From: an uncultured Planctomycetota bacterium
GTDB taxonomy: Bacteria; Planctomycetota; Planctomycetia; Gemmatales; Gemmataceae
Reading direction: 5' to 3'
DNA length: 64,000 nt
Assembly (NCBI GenBank): GCA_963849325.1
Contig: CAWKHF010000007.1
Coordinates: 256,001 to 320,000 of the forward strand
The notes under the pieces were generated by a model that saw only the letters and a list, made by a program, of their open reading frames with translations, searched no databases and had not been told where the DNA came from. Below, one piece after another: positions 26,195-46,700 of the stretch (within the stretch, counting starts at the first letter, position 1; each line of letters opens with the position of its first letter). A program made the translations under genes and the position numbers.

Positions 26195-27004
26195 ATGAAA
26201 TTCGCGTATGCTCTCCCACGTCGGTGGATGGGCTTCGCCGTCATCCTTGTTGTTCTCACACGCCTCCTGACAGTCGTTCGCGGTGAGGTTTCGGGGAGCG
26301 AGAAGCGGGAAGCCGATGCCAAGCGCGCGGCCGAGATGGTGAATGCAATCGTGAACCGCAATAAGGCGCCCAAGTTGGTGAAGTGGCGAGGCGATATTAC
26401 TTCATGGGCAGCATTCTTCCCCGAAGATCACGATTGGAAGTAGGAGGCGCGAGTTCACAAAGCGATATCTCAACTGGAAAGGGATCAGACCGAAGAGGTC
26501 TGGGAAGAACTGGTGAAACGAACGGGTGATCGGCACTATAGCGAAACGGTCACGAGCGTGAAGACGGGGGATGCGTATATCGAAGATGTCGGGACCATCT
26601 GCGCGTGGCTTGCCCACTCGCGCCTCATCGGTGTGTTCTGGCAGCACTTGCCGCTTAGCCCATTCAAGGATGGCGAGACACTCTCGCTGGATGTCGGTAT
26701 CGGCGATCTATCCAGGTGGCGCGAGCAACGGGCCGCAAAGTCGCTCTACGAGCTACAGATTGAAGTATGCGAGAGAGCGAACAAAGTTCTGGCGAAAGTG
26801 GAGGAGGTTCCGCAAGCGGAGAAGGAGCAGGCGCGGAAAAAGATCGAGGCCGAGATAGTGAAGCTGAAAAAGACCAAACAGCCCGTCCATATTCAGGGTG
26901 GTCACAGTTATCGAGAGCGCGGCGTGTACAACGCCGAACTTGCCAAACGGGTTCGCGACGGAGTCAAGAGCGGTAAGTATGGCCGCTTGGGCATCATCAA
27001 GTAA
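26195..27004 (+). pseudogene. Hypothetical exported protein interrupted by an in-frame TAG (26441-26443)
   Basis: ORFs 26114..26443 and 26513..27004 are in the same frame; hydrophobic N-terminus. Confidence 0.6.
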
Positions 27005-27102: not shown

Positions 27103-27600
27103 ATGACGGCGGCAGCAGCGGCCCTTGACTTAAGCGTGTTGTACGAGCGGGACGAGACAGCGTGGTTGGAGGCCATGTCGTCCCTGGCGGCCAGCGGGCG
27201 GTACGCCGAGATAGATTACCGGCACCTGAGCGAGTATCTGGCAGACATGGCCAAGCGCGATCGGCGAGAAGTGTTCAGTCGGCTGGTTGTACTCCTGTCC
27301 CATCTGCTGAAATGGGAACATCAACCGGAACGCCGATCCGGTTCGTGGCGGGGCACGATTCGAGAGCAAAGGCGTGAGTTGCGGCAACTGCTGGAGAGTG
27401 GCACCCTGCGTAACCATGCGGAGGCGGTTCGGGCAGACGCTTACGCAGAGGCAAGGCGCCAGGCGGCTGACGAAGCGGAGCTGAGCCTGGACGTGTTTCC
27501 TTCCGAGGACAGGCGGGGCTTGGATGAATTGTTGGCGGAGCCAGACGTTCGAATCCGGCGCTGCAGATGTAACGTTCAATGTCAAGTCCCGTCCCCGTGA
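27103..27600 (+). CDS. DUF29-family protein; C-terminus reads through the attC half-site into the IS end
   Basis: LYERDETAW...HLSEYLADM...LLSHLLKWEHQPERRSGSWRGTIREQR. Confidence 0.88.
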   Translation: MTAAAAALDLSVLYERDETAWLEAMSSLAASGRYAEIDYRHLSEYLADMAKRDRREVFSRLVVLLSHLLKWEHQPERRSGSWRGTIREQRRELRQLLESGTLRNHAEAVRADAYAEARRQAADEAELSLDVFPSEDRRGLDELLAEPDVRIRRCRCNVQCQVPSP

Positions 27601-29693
27601 TGACGGCCGGTAAGAACGGTTTCCTCTTTCCTGTCTGCGCAATGCGGACGGCTCCGTCCCAAGGGCGTATTCTCTCCACCGACACGGTCAACCGTTCCTT
27701 AACCGTTCCTCTTCTCTGTTGCCGGGCGTGCCGAAGGCTCCAACCCAAACGTCCGCACCAGGTCCAAGGCCGCTTCCCGCAGCGACAAGCCATGCAACGC
27801 CGCCCACAGGTCGATCACGTCCCCCTTCTGACCGCACGTCTTGTCGAAGCACTGGAAGACGTTGGCCTCCAGGTTGACGCTGAAGGTCCGGCCCCGGCCA
27901 TCGCCGCGATGCAGCGGACAGGCACCGCGACGCTGCGGACCATTGCCACGCAAGCGCGTCAACAGACCGAGTTGATCGAGCACCTGCACCAGCGACAGTT
28001 GCGCCTTGACCTGCGCAAAATCCACAAAGGAACTCTCGCCACGGGCGGCGGTCTCGGCTACGCTGTCGGCACAGGCCGCAGTGACCACTTTCTCAGCCGG
28101 CATAGCTTCCGGCTTGTGGCCCGCGGCCTGGCTCGTTGCTGACATACCATTGTCATCGGATGCAGCATTTACTGACGTGGCATTGTCATTCTCCTTGATG
28201 TGGGCCGGCGTCTGCCACGGATAGTGATCGCGGTCAAAAGGCCGGCCCGTTTTCCCAATGGCGAACACCAGATGCAACAGTTTACGCATGGCGTGGCCGA
28301 CGGCGACCGCCTTGTGCTGGGGATGCTTGGCCACGACACGGGTGTACAACGCTCGCACCGCCGGATTGAAGCGGATGGCGCTCAAGGCTGCCATCCACAG
28401 ATAGCGACGCACCAGGTCATTGCCGCGCCGACTCATGACAAAACGCCTGGGCGAACGCGGCTGGCCGTCGCGGTCCACGCCGCTGGAAGCCTCGATGGGC
28501 AAGACACCAAAATAGGCCACCAGCTTACCCGGCGGGGCGAAGCGATCGATGTCGGCGATGAAAGCTGTCAGCACCGCCGCCGTGACGGCGCCGATGCCCG
28601 GGATGGTGTCGAGGTGGTTGGTCTGGGGCAGGGCGTGATAGGCACTAACCAGCAGGGATTCCAGGCGTTTTTGCCGCGCGCCCCTATCGCGTAGTTGGCG
28701 GACCTGGTCGCGGACCAGCTCCTCGACGGCCGCGTCGTTCAGCGAGGCGATGGAGGTCTGTGCTTGTTGCAACAGCGGCGTTGCCAGGTCATCGGGTAGA
28801 TAGAGGATGGCAGCCAGTGTGGTGGGTCTGGCCTGGGCCAGGCGGGCGGCGGTCGGGTAGCGGTGGACCCGTTCGAGGACCCAGCCGGCGGCGATATCCT
28901 TGGTGAGCAGGGCCAGCTCGGGGAAGGTCAAGGCCAGGAGATGATGGAACGGGTTAAGGAGCCGTGTGCGTTGGCGGACGACAGCCTGGAGTCGGCCGGC
29001 GATCTGGCGGAGGATGCGGAGTTCCAGGGACAAGGGTTTGTCCCTTCGGGGTCGCTCGGTCACGGCATAGCGTGCGGCGACGCGGGCTTCGACGGGATCG
29101 GACTTGTGACTGCCGAAGAAGGCGGCGCGATAGTTTTTGTTGCGTTGCGGATCGCCGCAGGAGAGGGTGAGGGCCAGCGGCTGGGCGGCGTTGGCGGGGT
29201 CGGCTGGCGGCGTGGCCTGTTGGTGGAGAAAGTGCAGCAAGTTGTCGGCATAGGGTCCGGCCACGTCCAGACGCACGGCGAAGTCCACGGCGCCGTATCG
29301 TTGGACAAGGGCTTGGAGGCGTTGGCGGAAGAGAGCGTGGCCGGCGGCAGACTCGGGGAAGGACAGCTCGTCAGCAGCGGATTGGAGATCGTCGGTGAGA
29401 AAGACGGCGTAATGTCCGTAGCGGGAGGTGTCGATGCCGACGCCGATGCGTTGCGGTGATTGCGGCGCGGGAGCTGGCTGCTTTTCTAAGCAATGCAAGA
29501 GCAATTTTGGTGAGGATGCCGGCACGCTGGGTGCGCACGGTCATTGCTCCTTTGCGACCCCAATGGTCGCAATTGTTCCGTGCCACCGTCTGACCCACCG
29601 TGCCTACCGACTACCCTGCTCTCGGCGACTCGCCAACTACTCCTCCTCGGCACTTCAACGCTCGGCTCTCTCCAAGCTTTTACCTGGAATGTA
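27567..29693 (-). mobile_element. IS110-family element A, bounded by ATGTA at both ends
   Basis: ATGTA at 27567-27571 and 29689-29693; outward-facing TTGACA near the downstream end; ~130-150-nt non-coding ends. Confidence 0.8.
27699..29525 (-). CDS. IS110 recombinase fused to a C-terminal CHC2 (primase-type) zinc finger; true start may be the ATG at 29544 with a frameshift
   Basis: GIDTS, RLDVAG, KSDPVEA, LDTIPGIG, LVAYFG..PIEASSG, AMRKL; C-terminal CPLH-x19-C-x4-C..GDVIDL. Confidence 0.9.
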   Translation of the reverse strand: MPASSPKLLLHCLEKQPAPAPQSPQRIGVGIDTSRYGHYAVFLTDDLQSAADELSFPESAAGHALFRQRLQALVQRYGAVDFAVRLDVAGPYADNLLHFLHQQATPPADPANAAQPLALTLSCGDPQRNKNYRAAFFGSHKSDPVEARVAARYAVTERPRRDKPLSLELRILRQIAGRLQAVVRQRTRLLNPFHHLLALTFPELALLTKDIAAGWVLERVHRYPTAARLAQARPTTLAAILYLPDDLATPLLQQAQTSIASLNDAAVEELVRDQVRQLRDRGARQKRLESLLVSAYHALPQTNHLDTIPGIGAVTAAVLTAFIADIDRFAPPGKLVAYFGVLPIEASSGVDRDGQPRSPRRFVMSRRGNDLVRRYLWMAALSAIRFNPAVRALYTRVVAKHPQHKAVAVGHAMRKLLHLVFAIGKTGRPFDRDHYPWQTPAHIKENDNATSVNAASDDNGMSATSQAAGHKPEAMPAEKVVTAACADSVAETAARGESSFVDFAQVKAQLSLVQVLDQLGLLTRLRGNGPQRRGACPLHRGDGRGRTFSVNLEANVFQCFDKTCGQKGDVIDLWAALHGLSLREAALDLVRTFGLEPSARPATEKRNG

Positions 29694-29707
29694 TCGCCCC
29701 ACGGCGA

Positions 29708-31246
29708 CCATCGAATGGGCTCCCTCGAAGATCACGCCCAACGCCTCGGTCATGGCCCCTCCATACGGAGCTGGATGCTCCTTCCAGGCACGAGCAGCCG
29801 ATGCGGAAGGTGGCCCACCGAGGAGAGGTTGCCGACTTCGTCGTCGCTTCCTCCTTTCGTTGCTCAACTCCTCTTGCCCACGCCCGCGTCCAGCGACACC
29901 GTGCTGTCGGCCGTCAGACTTCGATATAACCGCGCCCGGTCGAAGGGCTCGCCGCGGCCGCCGACCCGGTACAACGCCAACGCCAACTTACGCATCACAC
30001 CGGCCAACGCCGGCTTGGCAGCGCCACGCCGTTGCGCCTTTTGCCGCACATACCAACTGCGCACCGGCTCCTGCCGCACCCAACGCAACGCCGCCAGGTA
30101 CAGCCAACGCCGTACCACGCTGGGACCCCGCTTGCTGATCTTGAGCTGGCCCTGCCAGCGACCACTGCTGCGTTCCTTCAGGTTCAGCCCCATCGCCTTG
30201 CGATAGGCCGACCCACAGTGGTAGTCCTGGGGATTGCCCAACGCCACCCACAGCACACACGCCGTCGCCGGGCCGACCACTGCGGCCATCGCCTGGATGA
30301 CCGGCTGCGTTGCCGCCAGTTGCCGCCGCCGCCGGGCCTGCCGATGCTGCTGCAGCCCCTCTTGCACCTGTTGGGCATAACGACGCAGGCGTTCCTCGTC
30401 CCAGCGTCCGACCGGCACGCCCGCCGTCTGCCGGGCGCTGGCTGCCAGCGCCTCGGCCTTGTCCCGGCGCAACAGACCCTTGCCCCAACGGTACAGCCGG
30501 TCTACCGCCTGGATGTCCTCCGCCAAGCCGCCTGGCCCGCCGTAGCGTAGCAGGCAGCGTCGCAGCACCCCGGAGGTCAAGGGCAACAACGCGGTCGCCT
30601 CGGGCCAATGCCGGCTCCAGAGCGCTTCCAGCCGGCCGTACCACAACTGCGTCTGCCGCCTTGGGCCTTCGAGCCACTCGACTTGGTAAGCCAGTTCCTG
30701 TTCGGCCTCGCTGGGCAGGACCAGCGGCCAGGGCCAACTGCGTCCCTGAGCGGCCAATTCGGCCACGATGGCGGCGTCCTTGCCGTCGTGCTGGGACGGG
30801 ACGCCGTCGAAGATCTCGGCGTAATCGGCGGCGGCCTTGGGGCTGATCCGATGCACCATCAAGCCGGCATGCTGGAGAGCGTGGCGAAGGGCATCGCCGT
30901 AGGTGCCGGTCGGCTCCAGGGCGACGACGAGCTGGCGGCCCTGGCCGAGGCGCTGCCGGGCCTGGGTGAGGCAGGGGAGGTCGGCGGGGTTGCGGCAGCG
31001 CCAGGGGCGCTCGAAGTCGTGGTTGTCCCAGCGGAGCACGCAGAGGATGGAGTCCTTGCCGACATCGAGGCCGGCGTGGACGAGCGTCTCGTGCCGCGGG
31101 TGCAGCAGGCGATCCAGGTAGATCGGATTGACAGCGACGGCGCGGTATGCTGTGCTCTTCATGGGGATGACCTTTTGTACGTGGACTGGTGATCGTAGCT
31201 GACACCACAATAAACCACTTTCGAGGCATCCCCATTCTTATAGCCC
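29708..31246 (-). mobile_element. IS110-family element B of IS1111 type
   Basis: Sub-terminal IRs GAATGGGCTCCCTCGAAG (29713-29730) / CTTTCGAGGCATCCCCATTC (31218-31237); CCA at both junctions; ~150-nt downstream non-coding region. Confidence 0.82.
29864..31162 (-). CDS. IS110/IS1111 recombinase
   Basis: GLDVGK, ALEPTG, HDGKDA (DEDD), ERSSG, ISKRG, VMRKL. Confidence 0.92.
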   Translation of the reverse strand: MKSTAYRAVAVNPIYLDRLLHPRHETLVHAGLDVGKDSILCVLRWDNHDFERPWRCRNPADLPCLTQARQRLGQGRQLVVALEPTGTYGDALRHALQHAGLMVHRISPKAAADYAEIFDGVPSQHDGKDAAIVAELAAQGRSWPWPLVLPSEAEQELAYQVEWLEGPRRQTQLWYGRLEALWSRHWPEATALLPLTSGVLRRCLLRYGGPGGLAEDIQAVDRLYRWGKGLLRRDKAEALAASARQTAGVPVGRWDEERLRRYAQQVQEGLQQHRQARRRRQLAATQPVIQAMAAVVGPATACVLWVALGNPQDYHCGSAYRKAMGLNLKERSSGRWQGQLKISKRGPSVVRRWLYLAALRWVRQEPVRSWYVRQKAQRRGAAKPALAGVMRKLALALYRVGGRGEPFDRARLYRSLTADSTVSLDAGVGKRS

Positions 31247-31260
31247 ACTGAGCTTGGTTG

Positions 31261-31460
31261 GTCGGCGAGTTCCTCGGCGAGGTTGACGGCTCCGGTGCAG
31301 GCTTCCCGTGCGGCGCCGTGGACGGTGCCGAGTCGTTGGATGGCTTGGTTGATGGCGTCGGCGGAGTCGGGCACGGCGCGGTTGCAGAGGACTTTGCCGG
31401 TGTTGTCCAGGACGCAGAGTTGGACGGCGTGTTGGGAGTAGTCCAGTCCGACGACTCGCC
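31261..31460 (-). pseudogene. N-terminal fragment of a third IS110 recombinase
   Basis: VVGLDYSQHAVQLCVLDNTG...EACTGAVNLAEEL. Confidence 0.7.
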
Positions 31461-31464
31461 TTCC

Positions 31465-31713
31465 CAACGGCTCACGCCGGTGGATGACCGCGAACAACGC
31501 CCGCAACGACTCACGCAAGCGTTCCCCAGAAGCACGCGCCGGAGTGTCCGGCAAGGTCGTCAGGAACTTCACGTCCCCGATCAGGGGGGCCAGGCAGAAC
31601 GGCATCACGACGCCGCACGCACGCAGGTAACGCCGGTAGGCCGAGAAGTAGTCGCAACCCAGCACGCCGTGGAACTCCTTCCCCAACCCCTCCAGCAGCA
31701 CGTCGGCCCGATC
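31465..31713 (-). pseudogene. Internal fragment of an IS66-family transposase
   Basis: VLLEGLGKEFHGVLGCDYFSAY...FCLAPLIGDVKFL. Confidence 0.7.
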
Positions 31714-31791
31714 AGCGAAGTGCTCATGCGGTCGTCCTTTCCACCGAAGAGGCCGCTTGCGGCCGGGCGCTCGTGCCCGGCCGCAAGCGGA

Positions 31792-43722: not shown

Positions 43723-46700
43723 ATGGCGCACGGTCCTTGTCCCCGTTGCCATTCCCTGAGCGACCGGGAGACGGTTGGTCCCATCGGGACAGGCCCCTGT
43801 CCCCTCTGCGGCTACCACGCGGCGACCTTCCAGGAGCCCGGCCGTCCGACCGAGGCGGATCGCCTCCTCGAGAACGAACACACGGTCGATCTTTGCCGAG
43901 ACGGAGAGCCGGAACCTGCTGGATCGGCCGTCTCCTCCCTGGTCTTCGGGCCTTATCGCATTCTGGGCCTGATCGGCAAGGGCGGGATGGGCATCGTCTA
44001 TCGCGTGCGCCACGAACCGACGGGTCGAGAGGCGGCGCTGAAGACCGTCCGCGCCCGCCGGCGGGAGATTTTGCACTGGTTCCGGCGTGAGATGCACGCC
44101 ATGAGCCGCATCCGTCACCGAGGCGTGGTGGCGGTCCTGGAAACCGGGCAAGCGAAGGGACAGCCCTGGTATGCAATGGAGTTGCTCCAGGGGGCGACCC
44201 TCCACAACTATTTGCAGACGGCGTGGGACCACTCCAGCCCGGAGGCCGGCCTTGGGTCCGGTTCCGTGCCCTCCTCCCGGACGCCGACCGAGCCGTTGCT
44301 CGATCCGCACCACCTCGACGGCCGCGCCGCGAGCTGGTGCGGACCACCCTCGCGGCCCATGCCCCTCACCGCCGGCGCCCTCCAGGACTTCCTGACGCTG
44401 ATCGCCCGCCTTTGCTCGGTGCTGGCCTACCTGCACGGCGAGGGCATCGTCCACCGGGATCTGAAGCCGCGCAACATCGTCGTCCGCCCGGACGGGACGC
44501 CTGTGTTGTTCGACTTCGGTCTGGCCTCCCACTTCGGTGCCGCGCGGGCGGGAGAGCTTGCAAGTCGGCGGCAAGCTCGAAGGCACGCCGGAATACATGG
44601 CCCCCGAGCAGATCCTGGGCGAGTACGTGGATGCGCGGGCCGACCTTTACGCGATCGGCTGCATCCTTTACCAGGGGGTGACGGGCCGTGTGCCCTTCCC
44701 GTCGCGGACCACGCCCGGCCACCTGGAAGCGTGTGTCCGCGACGACCCGGTCCCTCCCCGTTGTCTGGTGAAGGGCGTCCCCCATCTGCTGGAGGAGTTG
44801 ATCCTTCGCCTGCTGGTCAAGCGGCCCCGCGACCGGATCGGGCACGCCCGCGCCGTCATCGCCGTGTTGGCCCGCCTGGGCGGTGAGGTCGGCGACTGGG
44901 GGGCCGAGCCGGTCGGGCGCGACTACCTCTATCGCCCCGGTTTCGTCGGCCGCGACGAGGTGCTGGATCCCCTGGAACACCGCGTTGGCGACGGACGGGG
45001 AGGTTTCGGCCGCTGTCTCTTCCTTCGCGGGCGGAGCGGCTCCGGGAAGACACGCACCATCATGGAACTGGCCCGCCGGCTGGAACGTTCCGGCCAGACG
45101 GTGATTACCGGCGAATGCTTGCCGCTCGGCGCCGGCGGCGCCCGACGAAGGCCCCGGCGTCCGCTCGCGGCCGCTGCACCCGTTCCGGGCCTTCCTGCAA
45201 GTCGTGGCCGACGCCTGCCTCGAACGAGGAGAGGCCGAGACCGATCGGCTGCTCGGCCGCCGCGCCAAGATTCTGACGGTGTGCGAGCCGTCGCTGGACT
45301 CCCTGCCGGGGCGGCGGCGCCACGCCGACCCACCGCGACCCTCGCACGACGACGTGCGGGCGCGACTGATGGACGCGCTGGCGGAAACCCTCGCCGCCTT
45401 CGCACGCGGCACGCCGTTCGTCCTGATGCTCGACGACCTGCAATGGGCCGACGAGCTGACGTTGAACTTCCTCTCCCTGTTCCATCTCGGCACCTGGGAG
45501 GCGCCCGGCGTGGCCATCCTGGGTACCTATCGCAGTGAGGACGCCCGGGAAGTCGCGCGCGGCTGCGGCTCCGCCTTCGCGGACATCCCCACCGTGGACC
45601 TGGCACCCTTGGGGGAGGAGAGCCTCCACGACATCATCCGCGAGATGCTCGGCTCCGACGAGCCGCACGAACCATTCGTCCATCAACTCGCCCGCCGCGC
45701 GCAAGGCAATCCGTTCTTCGTGGCCGAGCTGTTGCGGGCGGCCATCGCCGAGGAGATACTCTACCGCGACGAGGACGGGCGCTGGCGCGTCCGGCTGCCT
45801 CGGGAGGCGGCGGGCGACATCCTGCCGTTGCCCGACTCGTTGACCGAGCTGATCGTCCGTCGGCTCGACGGGCTGTCGCCGTCCGCCCGCGCGATTGTGG
45901 AACTGGCCGCCGTCTTCGGCCGGGAGGTCGAGGCCGACCTGCTGGAGGGGGCCGGCCTGTTCGACGCCGACCGGATGACCGCCCTCCAGGAGTTGCTCGT
46001 GGCGCAAGTGCTGGAAGATTCCCCCAACGGCGTGTTCCGCTTTCTGCACGACAAGCTCCGCGAGGTCGTCTACTCCCAAATCCTTCCGGATCGTCGGCGT
46101 GAACTCCACCGGGTCGCCGCCGAGGCCATCGAGACCTGCTTCGCCGGCCGCGCGGACCTGCGAGCGCCATTACCCGACGCTGGCCCATCACTGGCACCAG
46201 TCGATCGGTGAGCGCGAGGCCGAGCCGGATCGGTCGGCCCGCGCGATTTTTTACCTGGAAAAGTCGGCCGTCCAGGCGACGCAAAGCGGCCTGCAACTGG
46301 AATCCGTCACGCATGGCCTGGCCGCGGCGCGGCTGCTGGGCGCCGACGTGCCCCACACGCCGGAAGCGGTCGCCGTTGCCCTGCTGGCCGAGTTGGAGAA
46401 CGTCCGCCGCTTGATGGCCGGCCGCCACCCCCTGGATCTGCTCCACCTGCCGCTTGCGGACGACCCGCGGATCGACCGGCTCATCGGCCTGCTGCAAGCG
46501 ATGCACCCGGCCGCCCACACGAGCAATCAGCACCAGCTGTCCGCCTTCCTGGCGGCCAAGAACTTGTGTCTGACCCTCGAGCACGGCCGCGGGCGCACCG
46601 CCCCTTGTGTTTACGCGCTGTTCACGATCGTGGCCCGCAACGTGTTCGAGGACAGCCGCCTGGCGGACGCCTTCAGCCGCCTGGCGATGGAAGAGGACGC

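Follow-up and report, generated by a model that had tools for sequence, protein, structure and literature searches.

How did two transposase genes of the IS110 family come to stand beside an integron cassette gene, framed by pieces of what looks like a cassette recombination site? The locus in question lies in a stretch of 64,000 nucleotides (the window) from an uncultured planctomycete of the Gemmataceae, G000:C7:256001-320000, where G000 denotes the source genome (8.2 Mb in 14 contigs) and C7 the contig. Integron cassettes recombine by way of their attC sites. The cassette gene here (27103-27600, plus strand) encodes a DUF29 protein (Pfam PF01724, E 7e-35), and two IS110-family transposase open reading frames (ORFs), A at 27699-29525 and B at 29864-31210, follow on the minus strand, tail to head; PF01548 and PF02371 are present in both proteins. 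We conclude, with good confidence, that the attC of the DUF29 cassette was invaded by two RNA-guided DEDD recombinase elements and was afterwards damaged by deletions. The two lineages apparently address mirror positions on the two arms of the same family of sites.

The attC family and its remains at the locus

The sites in question are imperfect palindromes of ∼97 to 98 nt with the layout GCCGAAC-N9-CAGCAGCCGG...CCGG-T-CTGCTG-N9-GTTCGGC. The consensus fold of nine of them comprises a 6-bp R box, two 9-nt unpaired spacers, a variable stem, an extrahelical base (column 79), and an invariant L box, CAGCAG/CTGCTG. A compensatory change was seen in 8 of the 22 pairs of this fold, and each of the six modelled R-box pairs (GCCGAAC ... 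GTTCGGC) is kept in at least 7 of the 9 seed sequences. A covariance model built here from the nine sites, R1, which stands in for the attC model of IntegronFinder, gave 40 matches (39 places) in G000, mostly clustered and spaced by 0.25 to 1.5 kb. The integron integrase gene intI was found above the curated cutoff in 64 of the 151 genomes of the family, and R1 detected arrays of up to 4 sites directly beside intact intI at 6 of 12 intI loci of relatives. At intI loci L140, L142, L143, and L149, the attC arrays lie past the 3' end of intI and the cassettes run in the same direction as intI, a layout that differs from the divergent one of clinical integrons. At some sites (G000:C12:879885-879977, C7:540344-540439, L050, and L053), CCTGGATACTCAT replaces the gene-proximal R box; the other strand of these sites reads ATG AGT ATC CAG GCG CTG CAG CAG, a possible ORF start entering the attC.

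A paralogue of the DUF29 gene (64% identical; G000:C5:81426-81833) is followed, 13 nt downstream, by an intact match to the attC model in the same relative orientation as in the window. In the window itself, DUF29 homology stops at ∼27546, and the ORF continues through an attC half into element A. This half (27548-27566) reads TTCGAAT (a degenerate R box), CCGG, CGCTGC, and AG on the plus strand. Seen on the minus strand, as the flank to the right of A, it reads CT-GCAGCG-CCGG-ATTCGAA, to be compared with CT-GCAGCG-NCTG-GTTCGGC in the family, and its spacing to the R box is that of intact sites. An ATTCGGC box also occurs in 3 of the 34 listed attC sites. The half far from the cassette gene (31248-31266) reads GCCGACC (the R box), AACCAAGCT, and CAG on the minus strand, and its ACCAAGCTCAG is identical to the intact site at C9:297303. 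What survives at this locus is the spacer and L-box parts alone (31248-31259, 29474-29480, and 27555-27566), all of which match family sites. Judged by sequence, both outer flanks are real integron attC half-sites.

Extent of element B

Element B (29481-31247, minus strand) is an apparently intact, IS1111-like insertion sequence (IS) of 1767 bp, recognized by its Pfam and NCBIfam matches to the IS110 family and by the termini of relatives in another genome, G137. It comprises a left end with an 85-nt 5' noncoding region (31163-31247), a transposase gene of 432 amino acids (aa) (29864-31162, with the true ATG at 31162), and a 383-nt 3' noncoding region (29481-29863). Relatives of B were present in 5 of the 201 genomes of the order, G000 counted, and G137 alone holds six full copies (65% protein identity). 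These copies share a left end, TTGGCTATAGG..., and a right end, ...GGCATCCCCG-A8-CGCCTTGACATGCTTAGAAAAG; the window copy has TGGGCTATAAG at 31247 and ...GGCATCCTCACCAAAATTGCTCTTGCATTGCTTAGAAAAG finishing at 29481. The 3' noncoding region aligns over its full length with that of the G137 relative, including GATC-TC-A-GGAGCC-ATTCGATGGTC...GATACATTCCAGG-AAAAG, and GCTTAGAAAAG terminates both. Since the alignment extends throughout the 3' region and the termini match, B is a single 1767-bp element running from 31247 to 29481.

This result changes the inner borders of the locus. The original prediction had drawn both elements as complete, with A ending at 29693, B beginning at 29708, and the central TCGCC/GGCGA stem of a compact attC between them. 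Both of these positions lie within the 3' region of B and are not element ends. The stem is a hairpin of that region (GGTCGCC-GTGG-GGCGATAC; 29691-29709, minus strand), which is kept in G137 through compensatory changes (GCC/GGC to CCG/CGG) and is 100% identical in a copy on contig C5, where window positions 29476-29725 recur with a single mismatch (G000:C5:64069-64318). The outer junctions fared better: the right end of A is at 27566/27567, as predicted, and the left end of B is at 31247/31248, one base from the predicted 31246.

The C5 copy belongs to an attC (G000:C5:64055-64391) that holds just the last ∼245 to 250 nt of B, at the usual position of B (CAG/...GAAAAG/CAGCC, with slashes at the junctions). 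Its left end, GTAGCCCA, includes the exact reverse complement of the first 7 nt of B (TGGGCTA), and this partial copy may be either a 5'-deleted B or a mini-element with the guide-RNA region alone. In G137, two copies of B relatives (L010 and L017; G137:C15:38847-43646) lie 0.5 to 3 kb from integron integrase fragments; their target is another palindromic repeat, CCCAGGGT-GCCCGC...GCGGGC-ACCCTGGG, which R1 does not detect.

Joining the right end of B to its left end puts a −35 box, TTGCAT (TTGACA in G137), 17 nt from TATAAG (TATAGG in G137), a spacing that is the geometry described for these families, here of a putative junction promoter. B also contains a 21-bp inverted repeat (31218-31237 versus 29710-29730) that is not clearly kept in G137.

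Element A and its family

Element A (27567-29473, minus strand) is an IS110-type IS that is truncated at its 5' end. Its transposase matches PF01548 (E 4.7e-12), PF02371 (E 1.4e-19), and, at the C terminus, the CHC2 zinc ribbon PF01807 (E 4.3e-9); against NF033542 it scores 123.9 bits, under the 140-bit cutoff. The stop codon is at 27699-27701 (minus strand), and the 132-nt right end (27567-27698) holds a TTGACA −35 box. Missing are the left end, the bridge-RNA (guide-RNA) region, the promoter, the start codon, and the first 5 to 6 codons, so that A is not the complete element originally assumed; the 599-aa ORF of the gene caller takes its upstream start from within the right end of B. Full-length relatives of A, which were found in 16 of the 201 genomes of the order (G000 counted), begin with TGTATGTTC, followed by a ∼250-nt 5' region and an ORF starting ATG CTA CCA, and have a 132-nt 3' region. 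Their 5' region bears no relation to window positions 29481-29730. Moreover, a 183-nt contig from a soil-metagenome run (X1) equals window positions 29342-29473, with 0 differences over 132 nt, and past 29473 continues as ...ATTCCGAGGTTCCC-ATG-CTA-CCA-CAA-CAT-C (minus strand), an intact A N terminus and 5' region. This contig and the full-length relatives thus place the breakpoint of A at 29473/29474.

Between this breakpoint and the right end of B remain seven nucleotides (29474-29480), which on the minus strand (29480-29474) read CAGCCAG and match the attC family variant CAGCAGCCAGCTCACGCG. The B/A junction also carries the microhomology CTC(N)CGCG. We considered that B might have inserted straight into the first codons of A at a pseudo-target. 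The idea was rejected because the intact A copy of X1 differs from the remnant at 4 of the 7 junction bases; it is ruled out as well by the left flank of B, which is an attC arm and not A sequence. A second A-like copy on contig C4 (89% identical) is a pseudogene that matches window positions 27559-29474 only. At G000:C12:1471948-1471998, an attC carries, at the insertion point of A, no more of an A-type right end than its final 14 nt (ATTGAACGTTACAT), and this looks like a footprint or the near-complete deletion of an A copy.

The transposases of this family reach ∼596 aa owing to the C-terminal CHC2 zinc ribbon, in which the residues C519, H522, C542, and C547 are the same in all five aligned family proteins. 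The three-domain architecture is common to 117 of the 120 top homologues of A. In all, 2733 proteins of the family were counted at E ≤ 1e-20 among 7999 candidates scored, and the sources label them only "transposase." The zinc ribbon may help to engage single-stranded or folded DNA.

Mirror insertion positions on the two attC arms

The insertion position of B recurs in G000 with an IS1111-type element that we label ISC. ISC measures 1.46 kb; its transposase has ∼337 aa, its 3' region 350 nt, and inverted repeats lie near its ends. Its four nearly identical copies (G000:C5:65.7-67.2 kb, C5:713-714.6 kb, C7:539-540.4 kb, and C12:958.7-960 kb) each lie inside an attC at AGCTCAG/CAGCC. The left flank consists of R box, spacer, and AGCTCAG in 4 of 4 copies, and a right flank CAGCCGGCTCACGCG...GTTCG that R1 detects is present in 3 of 4. 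B has the same left flank as ISC and is inserted at AAGCTC-AG/CAGCC, on the arm far from the gene. At C7:458364, a fragment of a B-like left end adjoins a left flank of the same kind, with an intact attC 610 nt away.

Element A is inserted on the opposite arm, beside the gene, at GGTCTG-CT/GCAGCG. A wider scan confirmed 107 relatives of A, of which 80 loci were kept; together with the C4 copy, they make up a flank set of 81 loci. All 46 readable 3' flanks start with CT, and 8 of them have CTGCAGC, as at the window copy. In the attC clade (L050, L053, L054, L058, L064, L098, and the C4 copy), the 5' flanks finish with ...GGTCTG-CT after an L box and an R box. The original prediction had asked whether homologues of A share a fixed insertion position in attC, and these relatives do so, at GGTCTG-CT-GCAGC. 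Rejoined empty A-type sites fold into attC hairpins with R and L boxes. Matches to R1 were obtained at 6 of the 10 attC-type A loci, all in transposase orientation, and in 4 there are further intact sites at cassette spacing. Remnants of A were seen in three more attC sites of G000 (C4, C6:48314, and C12:1471970).

Read on the bottom strand, the target of B and ISC is CCGGCTG-CT-GAGCTT and that of A is CCGGTCTG-CT-GCAGCG, one for each arm of the L-box palindrome. The B core AG (columns 18-19) pairs with the A core CT (columns 83-84) in the consensus fold, the individual pairs being 18-84 and 19-83. With model positions 19/20 and 84/85 as the points of insertion, the distance between them in an intact site would be ∼65 nt, not the 15 bp first proposed. 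The sequence comparisons support the conclusion that an IS110-type and an IS1111-like lineage home to opposite arms of this attC family, at mirror positions.

Several elements of the original prediction are borne out by these data: that the outer flanks are attC halves, that A and B are both antisense to the cassette gene, and that they hit the site "symmetrically," which is apt given that the core dinucleotides pair with each other. The proposal of two unrelated lineages holds insofar as an IS110-type and an IS1111-like lineage are different; "unrelated" goes too far, as both are of the DEDD/Transposase_20 kind and belong to one superfamily. Likewise, convergence on one attC is seen as mirror homing at the level of the site family, and a single attC at this locus would be the simplest reading.

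Guide sequences that match the flanks

The 5' region of A-type elements contains the conserved motif ...TTTC-(guide 1)-GAGG...GACCTCT-(guide 2)-AT... Guide 1 repeats the left flank together with the CT core; guide 2 gives the right flank, also with the core, as its reverse complement. Outside the core, the left guide (21 distinct) matched its flank at 4.76 of 6 positions, compared with a permuted mean of 2.22 and a maximum of 3.24, and the right guide (16 distinct) matched at 4.44 of 5 positions, compared with a mean of 1.86 and a maximum of 3.0 (2000 permutations each). The guides of the attC clade are GGTCTGCT and GCTGCAG, and 9 of the 56 readable guide pairs are of this type or at most two changes away.

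For B, candidate target guides of a seekRNA/bridge RNA lie in the 3' region (29761-29800, minus strand). One candidate, CGGCTGCT (29800-29793), is the complement of AG-CAGCCG in the target top strand, and a second, AGCTCCG (29772-29766), agrees with the left flank AAGCTCAG at 6 of 7 positions. The G137 relative carries CAACCCT and AAGCCCAG at the aligned places, both in agreement with the flanks of that relative. In B, the top-strand complement comes first and the bottom-strand match second. The 3' region of ISC similarly has GCCGGCTGCT and GCTCAG-ATGGGG, matching its target and its left junction.

Proposed history of the locus

Element borders, family-wide insertion positions, guide-flank covariation, and attC identity were computed here; RNA guidance, circle formation, and the order of events we infer from the published biology of IS110 and IS1111. 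Elements of the A and B types would be expected to move as circles, guided by RNA from the noncoding region, two short segments of which would pair with both strands of a ∼14-nt target around the core dinucleotide. In the circle, the −35 box at the right end of A would make a junction promoter. The guides of the A clade reproduce the conserved L-box arm; those of B and ISC give the opposite arm as its bottom strand. As the L box is imperfectly palindromic, the motif that the two lineages read is nearly the same, and the A core CT and the B core AG are the same two base pairs of the folded hairpin.

At this locus, B and A would have inserted in the two arms of the DUF29 attC, or else in two attC sites. 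A later deletion, using the CTC(N)CGCG microhomology, would have taken the attC center together with the left end of A, its start codon, and the first 5 to 6 codons. At a second junction, the far R box would have become fused with part of an ISC-like transposase gene. As it stands, A is unable to guide itself, and folding of the attC is no longer possible. Insertion of both elements in one single attC is the simplest reading, and we hold it at a little over one half.

The fragment at that second junction (31260-31454, minus strand; 195 bp) is an internal piece of a third IS110-family transposase gene, ISC-like and of the IS1111 type, and is 86.7% identical to the four full copies in G000. The far R box, GGTCGGC on the plus strand, doubles as its last 7 nt, and a contig of X1 runs on beyond 31260 as intact ISC-like sequence. 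The junction could be microhomology mediated or could reflect an integrase crossover at a secondary site. That IntI put the DUF29 cassette into a secondary site of the ISC-like gene was considered and found unsupported, with no remaining gene in the window, where a search for the remainder returned the 195 bp only.

Several observations weigh against this history of the locus. The attC center is deleted, which makes whole-site scoring impossible, and the pairing between the outer R boxes, GCCGACC and ATTCGAA, extends to only 3 of 7 positions, the gene-proximal box being degenerate. No intact attC was found in the 64-kb window with R1, even with filters off (best match, 17.5 bits, E 0.015, at 46271-46322). 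The intI of G000 is a remnant only (C5:71034-71630), with two N-terminal pieces, and a search of the genome with TIGR02249 gave nothing above the cutoff. When R1 was applied to the B-relative loci of G137 and G112, none of the 7 matched. The 432-aa transposase of B is outside the IS1111 length, and its motif GLNLKERSSG has L for P in GL-P----S(t)G. A convincing subterminal inverted repeat of 11 to 13 bp was not seen in B, where the only terminal repeats are GGGGATGCC and GGCATCCTC, 14 and 31 nt from the ends. Membership of B in IS1111 proper is therefore doubtful, given its transposase length and the lack of a convincing repeat. Finally, the B 3' region and the B/A junction were present in no public run, with nothing on 29556-29837, so that the join comes from the assembly alone. 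Among the public runs, the best has 0.15 of the sampled words. None of the elements is spanned by a contig and no empty-site allele was seen at that coverage, results that say nothing about absence.

Alternative explanations

The strongest competitor, which we regard as a real but less probable history, holds that the half-sites derive from two attC sites of a former array and that a larger deletion ran from the right flank of B to the sixth codon of A, perhaps taking whole cassettes. The 3-of-7 pairing of the outer R boxes speaks for this, compared with family pairs kept in at least 7 of 9 sites, as do the many rearranged attC/IS junctions in the genome and the fact that A-type and B-type elements occupy different attC sites elsewhere. 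However, it requires a longer deletion with the same end points and is thus less simple, and no other attC is detectable in the 64-kb window. The R-box mismatch itself says little, since the far box overlaps, or has been replaced by, ISC-like sequence; with the far R box a hybrid and the near one degenerate, their pairing neither proves nor excludes a single attC.

It is improbable that the B/A join is an assembly chimera formed at the 250-bp stretch common to this locus and G000:C5:64069-64318. The identity between the two places does stop 2 to 3 nt short of the breakpoint of A, and 29556-29837 is missing from the public runs. On the other side, a 250-bp repeat seldom misleads an assembly of 14 contigs for 8.2 Mb, and a sequence joining the right end of B to a truncated A would exist in the genome even if the contexts had been swapped.

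We give marginally less credence still to the idea that the 98-nt palindromes are a family resembling repetitive extragenic palindromic (REP) sequences, targeted by IS110 elements, and not integron attC. Such targeting of REP sequences by IS110-family elements is known (PMC11187229). G000 lacks an intact integrase, many of the sites are single or in small groups, and some have GGATACTCAT instead of the R box. However, R1 matches arrays of three to four sites right beside intact intI in relatives, the R and L boxes, unpaired spacers, and extrahelical base are all present, the spacing is cassette sized, small ORFs (including the DUF29 paralogue) finish at the sites, and the intI remnant of G000 lies 4 to 7 kb from one attC cluster.

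The compact model of the original prediction, a complete A (27567-29693) and B (29708-31246) ∼15 bp apart in an attC of 59 to 60 bp, is next to untenable: its outer junctions, attC-like outer boxes, and short hairpin at 29691-29709 are real, but 29481-29730 belongs to B and recurs with the hairpin in another attC on C5, the true 5' region of A in relatives is unrelated to TCCAGGTAAAAGC, the 5' end that the model would need there, and the rebuilt site is an artefact that fails both fold and profile tests, its coordinates giving 54 nt that fold no better than shuffles (z −0.8 and −1.0) and score −0.9 bits against the profile of the genome's attC family, compared with 45.7 to 61.0 bits for 5 of 5 family sites outside the seed.

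Genomic context

Planctomycete-specific domains (PSCyt1, PSD1, PSCyt2, and DUF1501) were found by domain search in neighboring genes, and the nearest relatives of elements A and B come from metagenome-assembled genomes of Gemmataceae and other Planctomycetota. An Rfam scan of the window gave 0 matches at gathering scores. The ORF with the ISC-like fragment extends upstream (31455-31791) into a weak match to an IS66 transposase; the Pfam match behind this IS66-like reading is subthreshold (E 0.005, 16.7 bits). The locus has the look of a graveyard in which IS fragments lie nested. GCCGAAC and GTTCGCG stand 11 nt apart (26933-26957) at ∼150 nt upstream of where DUF29 starts, a pair that may be a collapsed attC remnant at the other boundary of the cassette or may be due to chance. 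The intI remnant on C5 has one ORF with two tandem matches to the N-terminal part of the integrase model, after which it breaks off. The insertions and deletions described here leave the DUF29 cassette immobilized in this genome.

Comparison with known systems

Three kinds of mobile elements invite comparison with those described here. The first is the IS1111-attC group (ISPa21, ISPst6, ISKpn4, and ISPa25), for which the original papers are Tetu and Holmes 2008 and Post and Hall 2009. Elements of this group insert at a fixed position and orientation at one attC end, guided by RNA from the region downstream of tnp (PMC11187229). IS1111 transposases have 330 to 350 aa, the subterminal inverted repeats of 11 to 13 bp are followed by terminal extensions of 7 bp and 3 bp, and the seekRNA has the top-strand complement first, the reverse of the IS110 type (PMC11187229). 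ISC has the same layout (∼337 aa, 350-nt 3' region, near-terminal inverted repeats) and is an ordinary new member of the IS1111-attC kind. B occupies the same insertion position as ISC and, like it, has its guides in the 3' region; it differs from the group in its 432-aa transposase and in having no clear subterminal repeats. The hosts here are Planctomycetota with a different attC sequence family than that of the group, and element A is not of the group.

Group IIC-attC introns are mobile elements that also home to attC in fixed orientation (PMC3001079). In contrast to the elements here, they are retroelements with a reverse transcriptase and not DEDD recombinases, and none is present at the locus.

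RNA guidance has been published for the IS110 type as well as for IS1111 (PMC11187229; PMC11208160), and IS621 shows an arrangement of left target guide and right target guide with a CT core (PMC11208160; Durrant 2024). Relatives of A resemble IS110-type elements such as IS621 and ISEc21 (PMC11208160; Siddiquee 2024, PMC11187229) in their long 5' region, in the CT core of 46 of 46 flanks, in guides of which the left one equals its flank and the right one is complementary to its own, and in the −35 box at the right end. They depart from the IS110 members of ISfinder, whose transposases have 315 to 455 aa (PMC11187229), in being ∼596 aa long with a CHC2 (DnaG-type) zinc ribbon. No report of IS110 and CHC2 together was found in the literature searched. 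Likewise, no report was found in which an element of the IS110 type, with its guide region upstream, targets attC, although the supplements of PMC11187229 and PMC11208160 could list one; in the available portions of these two papers, attC targeting is reported for IS1111 members only, whereas the A clade described here targets attC. As originally suggested, then, A has relatives in attC sites and apparently represents an undescribed attC-targeting clade of ∼596-aa IS110-type recombinases with a primase-type zinc ribbon.

Tentatively, and with slightly less than even confidence, we propose that A belongs to an uncharacterized, abundant family, one clade of which reprogrammed its guides to the planctomycete attC L box, and that this clade and the IS1111-like elements both exploit the dyad symmetry of attC, opposite guide layouts cutting the same two base pairs from opposite strands. 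Such a second independent lineage, with the opposite guide layout, a CT core, a zinc ribbon, and the mirror position, would indicate that reprogramming to attC took place more than once. The ∼596-aa zinc-ribbon family, which is abundant in soil metagenomes, is a possible candidate for bridge-recombinase tools. The locus and its site family would also offer a natural paired case in which an IS110-type and an IS1111-type guide architecture read the same motif.

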